This document shows, piece by piece, positions 564 to 7,849 of a DNA stretch of 64,000 nt. Source of the stretch: an uncultured Candidatus Binatia bacterium (GTDB lineage Bacteria > Desulfobacterota > Binatia > UBA9968 > CAXXLF01); NCBI GenBank assembly GCA_965218425.1, contig OZ244621.1, forward strand, positions 3,616,001-3,680,000. Direction: 5' to 3'. The position numbers were made by a program, and so were the translations under genes. The notes under the pieces were generated by a model. It saw only the letters and a program-made list of their open reading frames with translations. It searched no databases and was not told the origin of the DNA. Numbering within the stretch: position 1 is the stretch's first letter; each line of letters starts with the position of its first letter.

Positions 564-606
564 GATATAACCTTTTAAACTGATCCTGTGAGATCAGAAA
601 GGTATC
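564..606 (+). promoter_or_regulatory. PyrR-binding RNA hairpin (anti-antiterminator) in the pyr leader
   Basis: GATA-TAA-CCTTT-TAAA-CTGATC-CTGTGA-GATCAG-AAAGG-TATC: lower CCTTT/AAAGG stem, TTTAA-type internal element, upper stem closed by a CNGNGA hexaloop. Lies immediately upstream of pyrR. Confidence 0.85.
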
Positions 607-636
607 GTGAAAAACAAGCAACTCGCAAATCATATG

Positions 637-673
637 AAGACCCCCTGCGGTAGCTCCGTTGGGGTCTTTTTTT
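637..673 (+). terminator. Intrinsic terminator (attenuator) in the pyr leader
   Basis: AAGACCCC...GGGGTCTT stem with an inner GCGG/CCGT stem, followed by T7 (667-673). Confidence 0.85.
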
Positions 674-1265
674 GTCTATGGAAAGATTAGATCAGGTTTT
701 ATTCCAGGGAGAAGACATCGAGCGGGCCACCAGTCGCATGGCCCACGAAATCCTCGAAAGTGAGGGGAATGGAGAAGGGCTGGCCCTTGTGGGGATTCAG
801 ACCCGAGGCGCCCACTTGGTCCAAAGGATAGCCGAGAAAATCGGTTCTTTCAGCGGCACCGTTCCCCCTGTGGGGTCCATCGACGTAACCCCCTACCGCG
901 ATGACCAGAAAGCAAAGGATGAGACTAGTCCACCCTCGGTTCAATTTCCAATCTCCATTGATGAAAAAACCTTGATCCTGGTGGACGATGTCATATACAC
1001 GGGTCGCACCATACGTGCTGCATTGGAATTGATTTTTCAACTTGGCAAGCCAAAGAGAATACTGGTGGCTGTATTGGTGGACCGGGGTGACAGGGAACTT
1101 CCCATCAAAGCGGATATCGTTGGCAAGAATGTGCGTGTGCCGGGATTGTCACGGGTCAATGTCCTGCTGAGTGAATTGGACGGGGTAGATCAGGTGACCG
1201 TAACTGAGGAGCAAGGCCTGAACCTTCACGGGGGAAATAGACCCCGAACCACAAACTCACGTTAA
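672..1265 (+). CDS. pyrR: PyrR, pyr operon attenuation protein / uracil phosphoribosyltransferase-like (start TTG 672 or ATG 678)
   Basis: RMAHEI, GIQTRG, IDVTPYRDD, LILVDDVIYTGRTIRAAL and VLVDRGDRELPIKAD.VGKN motifs. Confidence 0.93.
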   Translation: MSMERLDQVLFQGEDIERATSRMAHEILESEGNGEGLALVGIQTRGAHLVQRIAEKIGSFSGTVPPVGSIDVTPYRDDQKAKDETSPPSVQFPISIDEKTLILVDDVIYTGRTIRAALELIFQLGKPKRILVAVLVDRGDRELPIKADIVGKNVRVPGLSRVNVLLSELDGVDQVTVTEEQGLNLHGGNRPRTTNSR

Positions 1266-1442
1266 TCCTTTTGGGGGAACCCCCTGGCCGGGAATGAACC
1301 ATGACTCTGAGGAGAAACTTAAAATTTGAATCCCTGTGCTCACGTACTGGGCGTTATGTTGTTCAACCTGCCTGTCGAGAGTCACTAGGTCGAGCGAGAG
1401 ACCATCGACAGGTGGTACGGGGTAAACGTTAAGGATTGAGCC

Positions 1443-3383
1443 GTGAATCAACGAGATCTCGTAACCATCGATGACCTTTCGGATGAAGAGATCGAGGAGA
1501 TCTTTCATCTAGCCGATGAAATGGAGTCCGGCGGACATCGTCTCCCAGAATCTTCCATGGTGCCGGGAAAGATTATGGCCACGCTCTTCTACGAACCCAG
1601 TACCAGGACACGTCTTTCCTTTGAATCCGCAATGCACCGACTGGGGGGGGGCGTCATCAGCTGTCCTGACATGAGGTTTTCTTCCACGGCCAAGGGGGAG
1701 AGTATCGCTGACACGGCCAAGGTGGTCTCCAGCTACGCCGACATTATGGTGGTGCGCCATTATTGGGACGGGGCGGTCCAGGCCATGGCGGAACACGCCG
1801 ATGTTCCAATGATCAATGCAGGTGACGGGAGTCATGAGCACCCAACCCAGACCCTCTGCGATCTCTATACCCTACGGAGGGAAAAGGGAAAGCTCAAGGG
1901 TTTAACCCTAGCCATTTGTGGAGACATGAAACATGGGCGAACCATCCATTCTCTCGTGTATGCCCTGGCACGGTTTGGAGTCAACGTTATTATTTTAGCC
2001 GCCAAGGGAATGGAGCTTCCCGAATACGTGATTGATCGAATGGATACTCAGTATCATTACAGCCCTGTTGCGGTTCCTTCCGGCGATCTGAACGCTGTGG
2101 TGACATCCACGGACGCGGTGTATCTCGCTCCGACTCAACCCCATCAGTTGGCCCTCTTCACACAGTCGAACCTGGACATCGAAGGTCAGTTGAGCAAGGC
2201 GGCCTCTGGGCTAAAACTGGACGCTTTCTACGTTACCCGTCAACAGAAGGAGCGTCAGACCGACAATGGTTCCGAGAACGATCAGGAGTATCCCCGGATC
2301 GACGAGAGGTTCTTAAAGATCAAGCGGTTCAAGGAAACGGTTGTGATGCACCCCTTGCCCCGGGTGGATGAACTGTCGCCGGAGGTGGACAAGGATCGAA
2401 GAGGGATCTATTTCAAGCAGGCTGCCTATGGAGTTCCCATTCGAATGGCTCTCCTGAAGTTTTTGTTCGATGCCTCGGAGGCCAAGAGGCCGCGTCCCGT
2501 GCGAAAGCAATACCTTCTCTTCGAAAATCCTGAGCCGGTGGGTCCGCAATGTCCCAATGCCAAATGCGTGACCCGTATGGAGGCCCCCTCCACTCGGCCA
2601 AGATTTGAAGTCCTGTTTACGGGTCCAGGAAGCGGGCTGATTCTCCGCTGTCTTTACTGTGATCACCAACTCCGGGTCCGTATCATCGGACATTTAAAGT
2701 CCAAGCGATATTGCTCCTACGACGCCACCTTGGAACAGACCACCCGGGAGTGGTTGAAGAGCGGAGAATTGGCCGTTTTCGATACCATAAAACAGGCCGA
2801 GGAGCAGTTTTATGAGCCCTATAAAACGGGTCCACAGCGAACGATCATGGATGAAGCTGAGATTCACGAAGCCATCCAGCACATAGCCGAACGAATTGTC
2901 AATGAGGCGGAAAGTCCCGTTCCTCTGCTCGTTCTCGGTATCCGAACCAAGGGAGTGTTTATCGCCAATCGCATGGTAGCTGAACTGGCCAGGCAGGGGA
3001 GAAAGGCGGAGGCGGGAGAGATTGAGGTATTTGGCACCCAGGGTGAAGAGGACGGCAAGCCACCCATCGCATCCGTGAACGATTCATTACCACTCAATAT
3101 AAAAAGCCGTCCCGTGGTTCTGGTGGACGACGTCATTCATACGGGTCGGACGGTGAAAAGCGCCCTTAGTATCATATTCAAATCGGGCCGGCCCCAATCC
3201 GTACGTTTGGCAGTCTTGATCGATAGGGGCCATCGCGAGGTGCCGGTAAAGCCCAATTATATAGGTAAGCACATACCGAGTTCAGAAAGGGAACGAGTTC
3301 GCGTCAAGCTACGCGAGGTGGAAAAGGATGAGCGGGATAAAGTGGTTATCTATTCGGTGATCAATCCAACGGTCCCCGGGTAG
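1443..3383 (+). CDS. pyrB: Aspartate carbamoyltransferase catalytic chain fused to a PyrI-type Zn domain and a C-terminal PyrR-like PRTase domain
   Basis: Residues 1-~345: [36 protein letters not shown]. Residues 370-406: CPNAKC...RCLYCD. Residues ~467-640: [38 protein letters not shown]. Confidence 0.93.
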
Positions 3384-3397
3384 CGGACCCTCACTGG

Positions 3398-4522
3398 ATG
3401 AAAGCGGTACTGGCATTAGCGGACGGTGAGGTTTACGTGGGTCGATCCTTCGGTAGTGAAGGCGAGGCCGGAGGTGAGGTGGTGTTTAACACGAGCATGA
3501 CCGGATACCAGGAAATTTTGACGGATCCCTCCTATGAGGGACAAATGGTGGCCATGACCTATCCTGAAATCGGCAATGTTGGGGTTAACCCCGAGGACGT
3601 GGAGTCGCGTAAAGCTTTTGTGAAAGGATTCATTGTCAAGGAGTATTCACCTGTTCCCAGTAACTGGCGCTCTGCGGAGTCCTTGCACCGGTACATGAAA
3701 GAAAACGGCATTGTAGGCATTGAAGGGATCGACACGAGATCTCTGGTCAGACATTTGCGTGATAGCGGTTCCCAAGAAGGAATCATTTCGACGGGCGAGC
3801 AAAACCAGCAGGAACTCATTGCCAAGGCCCAAAGCTCGCCGGGTTTGCTTGGAAGAGATCTGGTGAAGGAAGTGACTTGCAAAGAGCCCTACGGCTGGGA
3901 CCGTGGAATTTGGGAGTTAGGCAAGGGCTATCAGGCGCAGGGGCAAACGGCTTACTCCGTGGTGGCCTACAACTACGGCATCAAGTTCAATATCCTACGG
4001 GGTCTGGTGGAGTCGGGATGCAATGTTAAGGTGGTTCCGGCCCGGACCTCGGCAGAGGATGTGTTGGCTGAAAACCCCGATGGGATATTTCTTTCCAATG
4101 GGCCAGGGGACCCCGATGCGGTTCCCTATGGAAAAGAAATCGTGCAGAAACTCGTTGGTGAGAAGCCTATCTTCGGGATTTGCTTGGGTCATCAGATTTT
4201 AGGTCTCGCTCTGGGGGGTAAGACCTATAAGTTGAAGTTTGGTCACCATGGCGGGAACCAACCAGTCATGAACCTAACGACAAAAAAAGTAGAGATCACG
4301 ACTCAGAATCATGGGTTTGCCGTGGACCCAGACTCATTGCAGGGATCGGCGGTGGTAACCCACCTAAACCTCAATGATCATACGGTGGAAGGGCTGGCTC
4401 ATAAGGCGCTACCCATCTTTTCCGTTCAGTATCACCCGGAATCTTCACCCGGCCCTCACGATGCCCACTACCTATTCCAGAGGTTTGTGGAGATGATGAA
4501 ACACAGAAAGAAATATGTTTAA
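3398..4522 (+). CDS. carA: Carbamoyl-phosphate synthase small (glutaminase) subunit
   Basis: [29 protein letters not shown] and SVQYHPE motifs. Confidence 0.98.
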
Positions 4523-4591: not shown

Positions 4592-7500
4592 ATGCCTAAA
4601 CGGACCGACATCAAATCAGTATTGCTCATCGGCTCAGGTCCCATTGTTATCGGTCAGGTCTGCGAGTTCGACTATTCGGGAACCCAGGCCCTCAAGGCCC
4701 TTAAAGAAGAGGGCTACCGGGTGGTTTTAGTCAACTCCAACCCGGCCACCATCATGACCGACCCTGACTTTGCGGACCGAACCTACGTTGAGCCCATCAC
4801 GGTTGACATGGTTGAAAAGATCATCGGCAAAGAGCGACCGGATGCGTTGCTTTCCACACTGGGAGGGCAGACCGCATTGAATGTTGCCATTGACCTGGCC
4901 GAGCAGGGGATCCTCCAGCAATACGGGGTGGAGATGATCGGGGCGAAGCTAGAGGCCATCAAAAAGGCAGAGGACCGTGACCTATTCAAGCTGGCAATGA
5001 GCAAGGTGGGACTGGACCTGCCCAGGAGCGGCTATGCGCACAGTTTGGACGAGGCCCTTGAGATACAACGGGAGCTCAACTTTCCACTGGTGATTCGACC
5101 TTCGCGAACCTTAGGGGGGAGCGGCGCCAGTATTGCTTATGGCCCAGAGCAATTTACCGAGGCGGTTACCTGGGGTCTGAAACTATCACCGGTACACGAG
5201 GTGCTGGTGGAGGAATCGGTCTTGGGATGGAAAGAATTTGAGCTGGAGGTCATGCGTGACCACAAGGACAATGTGGTCATCGTTTGCTCCATTGAGAACT
5301 TCGATCCCATGGGGGTTCACACGGGGGATTCCATTACCGTAGCCCCTGCCCAGACTCTCACGGACAAAGAGTATCAGATCATGAGGGATGCGGCGCTCAA
5401 GATCATACGCGAGATAGTCGTGGATACGGGTGGATCCAATATTCAGTTTGCCGTGAACCCGAACAACGGTCGACTGGTGGTGACCGAGATGAATCCACGG
5501 GTTTCCAGGAGTTCGGCCCTGGCCAGTAAGGCAACAGGCTTTCCCATTGCCAAGATCGCCGCGAAACTGGCGGTGGGTTATACCCTTGATGAAATACCAA
5601 ATGACATTACCCGGGAAACCCGGGCGTGCTTTGAGCCCACCATCGATTATGTGGTGGTAAAGATCCCCCGATTTACCTTTGAAAAGTTTCCACAGGCTAC
5701 GGATTTTCTCACCACTCAAATGAAATCCGTGGGGGAGGCCATGGCCATCGGTCGTACTTTTAAAGAAGCCCTGCAAAAGGCCGTGCGATCACTGGAAGTG
5801 GGATCCTATGGCTTTGATGAGAGGCTCATGCCTGAAGGGGACCACGAGAAAATTGACGGGTTTATCACTCAAAAACTGCAGACCCCCAATGCCCAACGCT
5901 TATGGTACTTAGCCGAAGCTTTCCGCAGGGGATATTCCGTGAGGGACCTTTTCCAGTTAACTCGAATCGACCCTTGGTTTTTAGAGCGCCTGCGCGAAAT
6001 CGTGGAGACTGAGTCCGAAATCCAGCAGTGGAATAAGGCGACACCGCCCATGGGTGAGTTTCTTTATACGGTGAAGCAGATGGGATTCTCTGATCGGCGG
6101 TTGGCTCATCTCATGGGCCGCAGTGAGGCAGAAATACGTTCATCTCGCTTGCAGTACGGAATCCGTGCGGTATTTCGCACTGTGGACACCTGCGCAGCGG
6201 AGTTTGCCGCCTACACACCCTACCTCTATTCCACCTACGATGAAGGAGAAGACGAGTCGAACCCCAGCGGACGAAAAAAAATTATGATCCTTGGGGGAGG
6301 ACCCAACCGCATCGGTCAAGGCATTGAGTTCGACTATTGCTGTGTCCACGCGGCCTTCGCCTTGAAGGAGGATGGCTACGAGACTATCATGGTCAACTGC
6401 AACCCGGAGACGGTGAGCACCGACTACGACACTTCGGATAAACTTTATTTCGAACCACTTACTTTGGAAGATGTTCTCAGCATCGTGGATGTGGAAAAAC
6501 CGGATGGGGTGATCGTTCAGTTTGGGGGACAAACCCCACTCAGGTTAGCCCTGTCTCTGGAAAAGGCCGGCGTCAAGCTCATCGGGACCTCGCCTGATAG
6601 CATCGATCTTGCGGAAGATCGGGACAGGTTTAGAGAGCTCCTCCAGGCGCTCGGTTTGAAGCAACCCGTGAGCGGCAGCGCCCGTTCCTATGAGGAGGGA
6701 AAGGAGATTGCTGAACGGATTGGCTACCCGGTTTTGGTGCGTCCCTCCTATGTTCTGGGAGGGAGGGCCATGGATATCGTTTATGATGAGACTGACCTGA
6801 AGCTCTACATGACCAATGCGGTCGCCGCTTCGCCTGAGCACCCCGTGTTGATTGACGAGTTCTTGGACGATGCCGTTGAGGTGGACGTGGACGCTTTGGC
6901 TGACGGAGAAGACGTGGTCATTGGTGGAATCATGGAGCACATCGAACGGGCTGGCGTTCACTCCGGGGATAGCGCCTGTTCACTACCGCCGAAATCCATT
7001 GATGATTGCGTCCAGGATGAAATCCGACGCCAGACGGTTTCCCTGGCCCGGGCACTTGGTGTCAGGGGGCTCATGAACGTGCAGTTTGCAGTTAAGGGAA
7101 CCGAGGTTTTTATACTAGAGGTTAACCCGCGGGCTTCTAGAACCGTGCCTTTTGTGAGCAAGGCCATAGGGATCCCCCTGGCCAAAATGGCGGCACGGGT
7201 AACGGTGGGGCAAAGGCTTAGAGACCTGGGTATGAGCTCCGAGGTCGTGCCCACCCATATCGCTGTCAAAGAATCGGTTTTTCCCTTTAGCAAGTTTCCC
7301 GGTGTGGACACCCTGCTGGGTCCGGAAATGAAATCCACCGGGGAGGTGATGGGTATCGATCATTCCTTTGGTCAGGCCTTTGCAAAGGCTCAGCTGGGAG
7401 GCGGAATGCGCTTGCCCCAGACCGGAAGGGTCTTTATCAGTATTCGCGATGAACACAAGGAAAGGGCCGGCGCCATCGCCCATAGGCTCCATAAGATTGG

Positions 7501-7849
7501 CTTTCGGGTTTTAGCCACCAAGGGCACTGCCGCGTTTTTTGAAAAGAAAAATATTCCTGCCGAGGTAATCAACAAGGTGCAGGAAGGAAGCCCGCATGTG
7601 GTGGACGCCATTCAATGCGGTGAGGTGGCCATGGTCATCAACACTCCCACGGACGCCCACTCCCAGGCCGACTCCTACTATATCCGTCGAAACGCCTTGG
7701 ACTTTCAGATTCCTTACTTTACTACCATTGCAGGCGCAGATGCGGCGGTGGAAGGGATCGAATTGTTGAAGGATGGTGATCTGGTGGTTCGAGCGCTTCA
7801 AGAATACCGGGCCACAACCCGTCGTGTTACTGAACCGTCAACTGAATGA
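4592..7849 (+). CDS. carB: Carbamoyl-phosphate synthase large subunit
   Basis: [29 protein letters not shown], duplicated ATP-grasp halves, C-terminal MGS domain; 1085 aa. Confidence 0.98.

Follow-up and report, generated by a model that had tools for sequence, protein, structure and literature searches.

A single-chain aspartate carbamoyltransferase with a PyrI-type zinc domain, an Ada-like module and a PyrR-derived domain in a Candidatus Binatia bacterium

Aspartate carbamoyltransferase (ATCase) is a textbook case of allosteric feedback control, and in the classical enzymes a zinc domain docks the regulatory chain onto the catalytic chain. The stretch of 64,000 nucleotides analyzed here (contig OZ244621.1 of assembly GCA_965218425.1, positions 3,616,001 to 3,680,000, from an uncultured Candidatus Binatia bacterium; hereafter the window) contains a gene in which an ATCase, a PyrI-type zinc domain and a domain related to the attenuation protein PyrR are joined in one open reading frame (ORF), and which raises the question of how such an enzyme could be regulated. 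The first-pass annotation of the window read the gene as a three-domain enzyme whose PyrR domain had replaced the allosteric domain of PyrI. Positions below are given in window numbering and residues (aa) are those of the 646-aa fusion protein, whose features are the following:

1443..3383, plus strand: PyrB-Zn-Ada-like-PyrR fusion ORF, one open frame of 646 codons with a GTG start
1443..2477, plus strand: ATCase catalytic part (aa 1-345), from Pfam, NCBIfam and PDB searches
2043..2216, plus strand: family-specific insert of ~40 residues in the aspartate domain (within aa ~201-258, includes PHQLALFT), which splits the OTCace match
2508..2681, plus strand: PyrI_C-type four-Cys zinc domain (aa 356-413; C370, C375, C403, C406), from PF02748 and a structure match
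2682..2840, plus strand: Cys-less module resembling the N-terminal domain of Ada (N-Ada) (aa 414-466), from conservation, hhalign and a structure match
2841..3383, plus strand: PyrR-derived phosphoribosyltransferase (PRTase) domain (aa 467-646) and stop codon, from Pfam, NCBIfam, a PDB search and a tree

Four modules in one chain

The fusion is a single chain of four modules: catalytic, PyrI-type zinc, Cys-less Ada-like and PyrR-derived PRTase. Pfam matches OTCace_N at aa 4-145 (173.7 bits), OTCace in two stretches of which the last ends at aa 340 (80.4 bits), PyrI_C at aa 369-413 (26.7 bits, cut-off 23.4) and Pribosyltran at aa 473-608 (71.1 bits). Both the NCBIfam ATCase model TIGR00670 (302.6 bits, cut-off 236.95) and the PyrR model NF003549 (aa 465-637, 146.6 bits, cut-off 138) are passed, so that the two collections agree with the uninterrupted 646-aa ORF carrying ATCase, four-Cys and PyrR-type PRTase parts that had been described at first. 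The N-terminus fits the consensus start of 110 full-length fusion homologues (alignment A1), on which all residues called invariant in this text are based.

The closest solved chains to the catalytic part are 2rgw and 1ml4, archaeal ATCases from organisms for which PyrI structures have been solved as well (2yww), and the catalytic chain is, as judged by these nearest relatives, of the PyrI-partnered type. STRTR (53-57), HPxQ (133-136), TRxQxER (265-271) and HPLPR (303-307) are invariant in A1, and the window protein shows the carbamoyl-phosphate and aspartate motifs as FYEPSTRTR (aa 49-57), TRQQKER (265-271) and HPLPR (303-307); the transcarbamylase motifs FxExSTR, RxQxER and HPLP are named in a 2015 review (PMC4581275). 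The insert is not found in solved ATCases, where the alignment jumps from query residue 200 to 259, and it is poorly modeled by AlphaFold2 (AF2), with a predicted local distance difference test (pLDDT) score below 50 at aa 216-255.

The catalytic domain and the zinc module lie only about 25 residues apart. The assignment of C370, C375, C403 and C406 to a PyrI-type zinc module, already proposed from the letters, is borne out by PF02748, which gives the isolated module 29.9 bits (cut-off 23.4) and matches all 19 members of an alignment of zinc module plus tail (A2), and by the four cysteines, which are invariant. A profile of the module matches PDB PyrI chains at E 8e-8. In a model of aa 356-468 (mean pLDDT 81.2), the zinc domain superposes on PyrI zinc domains (2be7_D, Z 6.6, root mean square deviation (rmsd) 2.6 over 49 aligned residues; 2yww_B, Z 5.9). 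Foldseek with the same zinc-plus-tail model returned no match at E up to 0.001, its best hits being PyrI chains at E 0.012, and the ESM Atlas gave no usable match.

The following residues, aa 414-466, had been taken for a linker of about 60 aa. They form instead a conserved folded module with 15 invariant positions and, in the aa 356-468 model, a block pLDDT of 80-91, predicted as strand-helix-strand-helix. The same module is the C-terminal tail of ~470-aa PyrB-Zn enzymes from Chloroflexota and Alphaproteobacteria: hhalign on the tail columns alone aligned the fusion-type tails with the other tails at 97.9% and E 4.5e-13, and a hidden Markov model built from the other tails recovered all seven window-type tails. 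The Pfam family Ada_Zn_binding (PF02805) matches seven of the 19 tails, one of them (L040) above the cut-off (28.0 against 23 bits) and six at 13-17 bits, and it does not match the module of the window itself at E up to 10. Conversely, the tail half of the A2 profile, run against 1.84 billion representatives, retrieves six multi-repeat proteins that score 60-115 bits on PF02805. These proteins (P0157, P0176, P0193, P0200, P0205 and P0215) carry three to six tandem Ada_Zn_binding repeats, and some also show a staphylococcal-nuclease domain or DUF6233. Furthermore, aa 413-464 (model residues 58-109) superpose on residues 27-73 of N-Ada, with 1u8b_A (Z 4.5, rmsd 2.7, 47 aligned residues) and 1eyf_A (Z 3.9) ranking third and fourth of 48,161 chains, a match that is weak alone, as Z is under 8, the value below which the guidance of the tool calls a match weak.

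The defining feature of N-Ada is a four-Cys metal site. The tail columns of A2, however, show no conserved set of Cys or His, and the single Cys of the window tail is C424. Taking superposition, homologous tails that match PF02805 and reciprocal profile retrieval together, aa 414-466 are, as judged by these comparisons, homologous to about the second half of the Ada N-terminal metal-binding domain, without its cysteines; there is no sign of a DNA-repair role for the fusion module.

The PyrR-derived domain aligns with solved PyrRs over about 170 residues (4p81_A at E 9e-35), and resembles Bacillus PyrR (1a3c, 1non and the 4p8x series) end to end, including the loop that binds phosphoribosyl pyrophosphate (PRPP) and the motif DRGHRE. 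This type I PRTase PRPP/nucleotide-binding loop lies at aa 558-570 and is conserved in 115 fused domains. Residues D562, D563, G568, T570, D594, R595, G596, R598 and E599 are invariant in the 110 homologues, and both LVDDVI.TGRT and DRGHRE are conserved in fused domains. In other respects the domain differs from PyrR. It passes only one of the five NCBIfam PyrR cut-offs, remaining below those of NF003547 (138.7 bits against 230), NF003548 (134.5 against 218), NF003546 (110 against 268) and NF003545 (93.4 against 140), and it is joined to an enzyme, while a true PyrR is encoded next door. In addition, the motifs R...R[IM]AHEI and YRDD are absent from the consensus of the 115 fused domains but kept by all the free PyrRs compared, 11 encoded just upstream of fusions and 16 from Chloroflexota loci; the window fusion has AIQHIAERI and FGTQGE in their places. 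We take the first motif to lie on the RNA-binding face of PyrR and the second in a flexible catalytic loop. The helix of R...R[IM]AHEI reportedly carries RNA-binding residues, from work by Savacool and Switzer in 2002. An unrooted maximum-likelihood tree divides 12 fused domains from 24 free PyrRs by a branch with 100/100 support; a separate clade of this kind fits one old fusion.

The genome is in one contig and 97% complete. In it, the fusion is the sole frame above the TIGR00670 cut-off, the second carbamoyltransferase being an ornithine carbamoyltransferase (OTCase; 432.8 bits against 306), and the fusion is the only aspartate carbamoyltransferase of the organism. It is also the sole ORF of the genome with PyrI_C above the cut-off. 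The PyrI allosteric domain PF01948 was found neither in the protein (E up to 0.1) nor in the whole genome (E up to 1), the latter in a search whose control was positive in seven of 14 known genomes. The absence of this domain from its usual place, noted in the first-pass annotation, extends in this way to the genome.

Distribution of the fusion and its shorter relatives

With aa 340-646 as query, 694 proteins were recovered at E up to 0.001. Among the best 120 of these 694 matches, 110 are of 600-700 aa, and those listed at that length share the same Pfam families; the remaining 10 are shorter, have no N-terminal ATCase domain and look like truncated genes. A possible free-standing Zn-Ada-like-PyrR gene, a 313-aa frame in genome G214, was rejected, being cut by the contig end and starting with the last catalytic-domain residues, and the database proteins P0132 and P0133, of 313 and 327 aa, are probably similar fragments. 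Public records name the fusion proteins simply as aspartate carbamoyltransferase.

A full-length, stop-free match was found in 18 of 40 relatives: three of four in family f1, where the contig of another copy stops at residue 401, 15 of 18 in f2 and none of 18 in f3. Among 200 other genomes of the class, 57 contain the Zn-tail-PyrR unit, and all belong to five families, where it is present in 57 of 60 genomes (f1, 1/1; f2, 12/14; f8, 25/25, counting the unpublished genome G312; f91, 18/19; f89, 1/1); it was found in none of the 140 genomes of 15 other families. Of 200 genomes spread over the phylum only one contains the unit, and it is from the same class. In one f2 genome (G039; 98% complete, seven contigs) the single match to the whole protein is OTCase-like (34% over aa 2-228), and no ATCase was found there with the fusion as query. 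On a contig of a metagenome-assembled genome labeled Chloroflexi (L073, 3161-5421), query residues 42-612 are matched with the catalytic part and a PyrR-like piece in different frames; this may be a copy of the full fusion from outside the main clade, altered by a frameshift or by an assembly error.

That the fusion is an artefact, be it through loss of a stop codon, wrong assembly or gene decay, is already refuted by the 694 homologues, by intact frames in dozens of genomes, by the position of the fusion as sole ATCase of its genome, and by contigs of two to three studies that were assembled independently and have the same sequence. Contigs from public runs of two studies match window 1300-3500 with 0 differences and 0 gaps, and those of a third study are identical over 1300-2729; one of these runs may be the source of the window. 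No RNA run was listed among the sequencing runs. As far as comparison of homologues can tell, the fusion is under long purifying selection.

A comparison of 80 loci of named genomes gives five layouts. In the first, PyrB and PyrI are separate chains of the classical kind (as in Thermoplasmata loci L049 and L054). The second is a PyrB-Zn enzyme of ~360 aa in Bacillota, Bacteroidota, Poribacteria and Armatimonadota, with PyrI_C in all six proteins scanned and above the cut-off in four. These six ATCases (L037, L079, L044, L062, L067 and L072) end in PyrI_C without allosteric domain or tail, their matches begin near position 4001 of each locus, and their hosts are Bacillota, Alistipes, Poribacteria, Armatimonadota, Ruminococcus and Christensenellaceae genomes; a BLAST search with the zinc domain of the window found no separate PyrI-like ORF in the 4-kb flanks of the short loci. 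The third layout, PyrB(insert)-Zn-Ada-like of ~470 aa, belongs to Chloroflexota and has a free pyrR directly upstream in all 16 loci (L012-L018, L020, L022-L028 and L030, Chloroflexota/Dehalococcoidia), often overlapping the ATCase gene. The fourth is the same 470-aa layout in seven loci of Alphaproteobacteria-labeled genomes, with no pyrR seen in the flanks, and the fifth is the full fusion, in seven loci labeled delta proteobacterium or Binatus/Binataceae. No description of PyrB-Zn or PyrB-Zn-Ada-like ATCases was found in the literature searched.

These enzymes share the catalytic subfamily and zinc domain of the fusion, and the 470-aa forms also its insert and Ada-like tail, but they end after the zinc domain or the tail and lack a fused PyrR. 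Since both kinds exist in other phyla without PyrR, the allosteric domain was lost and PyrR gained in separate events. It appears that the allosteric domain went first, that adaptor and insert came next and that PyrR was acquired last, in an order taken from the nesting of the layouts and not from a rooted tree. The insert is present in all 19 sequences with an Ada-like tail and in none of the six short PyrB-Zn forms; as the sequences compared are related, this pairing characterizes the family and does not independently show that insert and tail touch. No other sensor domain was found on the same arm in a small sample of 22 proteins scanned, of 150 listed from 411 matches.

Known ATCases and the regulation of the fusion

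Class B ATCases (PyrB6-PyrI6 of E. coli and archaea) are among the nearest known systems, with a catalytic chain of the type that 2rgw and 1ml4 represent and a zinc domain of the same PyrI_C family and fold. The fusion differs from them in having all parts on one chain, in lacking the PyrI allosteric domain in both protein and genome, in a candidate sensor of PRTase fold that follows the zinc domain, and in the extra Ada-like module and ~40-residue aspartate-domain insert. Catalytic and regulatory parts are also on one polypeptide in the PyrB-PyrI ATCase of Thermotoga maritima (Chen et al. 1998, as cited in PMC4581275), a fusion also named in the first-pass annotation. However, the Thermotoga protein carries the whole PyrI including its allosteric domain and has no PyrR or Ada-like module, and its model NF009916 gives the window fusion 94.5 bits against a cut-off of 800, over aa 5-203 only. 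A PyrB-PyrI fusion of Treponema, named there as well, was not found in the literature searched. The 2015 transcarbamylase review distinguishes only three quaternary types of prokaryotic ATCase and, in the part available, does not mention PyrR (PMC4581275). The claim that the architecture is undescribed is in line with our full-text literature search, with subscription journals mostly outside its coverage, which returned no description of a PyrB-PyrR protein. The fusion is probably an unstudied way of feedback-controlling ATCase.

We favor, at a probability of roughly 55%, that the zinc, Ada-like and PyrR-derived modules are a built-in regulatory arm with a nucleotide sensor. The zinc domain would dock on the catalytic chain as it does in PyrI, and the Ada-like module would connect it to the PyrR-derived domain, which would bind a phosphoribosyl ligand in its conserved PRPP/nucleotide site. 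PyrR binds uridine mono- and triphosphate (UMP/UTP) and guanosine monophosphate (GMP) antagonistically and acts as a dimer, according to a review (PMC7430163), and this antagonism suggests the effectors of the fusion: by analogy, the likely ligands would be UMP/UTP against GMP/guanosine triphosphate (GTP) or PRPP. The signal would pass via the Ada-like and zinc modules to the catalytic trimer, and the PyrR-derived domain would probably pair with a second copy, as in PyrR dimers, linking two trimers. Transcription control would be left to the separate orthodox PyrR encoded just upstream, acting on the PyrR-binding RNA of the leader. Ligand identity, allosteric coupling and oligomeric state are what we infer for the fusion from these likenesses. 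In a more specific form, which we consider tentative, PyrR-type dimers would tie two trimers into a single-chain holoenzyme, and uridine nucleotides would compete with purine nucleotides or PRPP for the PRTase site and in this way set the balance between tense (T) and relaxed (R) states.

Several observations weigh against a sensory arm. The AF2 model of the full-length protein is moderate (mean pLDDT 68.3, predicted template modeling score (pTM) 0.61), and within the PyrR domain the pLDDT falls below 50 over the C-terminal third (aa 594-646). Distant fused forms, labeled Binatus, carry SGWT and not TGRT in the loop, so the ligand site varies within the family. In Chloroflexota and Alphaproteobacteria, PyrB-Zn-Ada-like enzymes do without a fused PyrR, and the arm may therefore have a role that needs no sensor. 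Finally, the order of modules, zinc domain and then sensor, is the reverse of that in PyrI, so that the PyrI signal path cannot simply be assumed. The same order limits the idea that PyrR replaced the allosteric domain: the allosteric domain is gone and the PRPP loop is invariant, as that idea holds, but the PyrR part is C-terminal to the zinc domain, in another topology, and is an added module instead of a replacement in place.

The invariant PRPP loop would also suit a bifunctional enzyme, in which the fused domain is a working uracil phosphoribosyltransferase (UPRTase) that joins de novo synthesis (ATCase) with salvage and has no allosteric role. The genome has no upp above the Pfam cut-off, in a search whose control was above the cut-off in 12 of 14 known genomes, and PyrR is one of the two UPRTases of B. 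subtilis (PMC7430163). The fused domain has lost, however, the YRDD of all sampled free PyrRs, the free PyrR next door could supply the UPRTase activity, and a simple enzyme fusion needs neither a zinc docking domain nor an adaptor between its parts. We regard a purely bifunctional enzyme as unlikely, although UPRTase activity is compatible with a sensor role and the two are not exclusive. The loss of two PyrR motifs, the SGWT of distant members and the dimers formed by members of the PyrR family (PMC7430163) could instead indicate a scaffold, that is, a domain without ligand function that only holds or stabilizes trimers. A pure scaffold would not need phosphoribosyl-binding residues that are invariant in 110 homologues, and we give this explanation still less weight. 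The least probable, and a far-fetched one in our opinion, is that the fused domain has the pyr leader RNA or the free PyrR as its binding partner, coupling the state of the enzyme to transcription; the fusion always has a free pyrR and a PyrR-binding RNA element beside it, but the R...R[IM]AHEI helix of the free PyrRs is absent from the fused domains.

The family keeps the zinc docking domain, drops the classical nucleotide-binding domain and gains an Ada-like adaptor and then a PyrR-derived fold, in steps that are visible in living lineages. The proteins concerned are soluble metabolic enzymes of environmental bacteria that are not pathogens. If the arm regulates the enzyme, it would be a natural experiment in which an allosteric machine changed its sensor but kept its docking piece, and a case of a transcription attenuator recruited as the regulatory domain of an enzyme. 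If, furthermore, PyrR-type dimers bridge the trimers and set the T/R balance, the fusion would have arrived independently at the pyrimidine-versus-purine control that is exerted in E. coli by the unrelated allosteric domain of PyrI. The unfused enzymes of Chloroflexota may recruit the free PyrR as a detachable regulatory subunit or partner.

Operon context

The fusion is the third element of an operon with the order PyrR-binding RNA, free pyrR, fusion, carA and probable carB:

567..675, plus strand: PyrR-binding RNA element RF00515 in the operon leader, matched over the whole model (1-115) with 48.6 bits (gathering score 54; E 1.6e-4)
672..1265, plus strand: free-standing pyrR, 197 aa from the first listed TTG, NF003549 at 190.6 bits against the cut-off of 138
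3398..4522, plus strand: carA, carbamoyl-phosphate synthase small chain, Pfam CPSase_sm_chain and GATase
4592..7849, plus strand: probable carB, large chain, a 1085-aa ORF, from its sequence and its position after carA

An RF00515 element is found upstream of the free pyrR in nine of nine related loci, four of them at or above the gathering score, and so in ten of ten with the window. Since free pyrR and RF00515 site are kept in the window and in all these loci, the fused copy would not be needed for attenuation. The free PyrR of the window keeps R...R[IM]AHEI and YRDD. It shows DRGDRELP at the site where Chloroflexota free PyrRs and fused domains have DRGHRE, and the residue within DRG.RELP is a variable position in the free PyrRs adjoining fusions.

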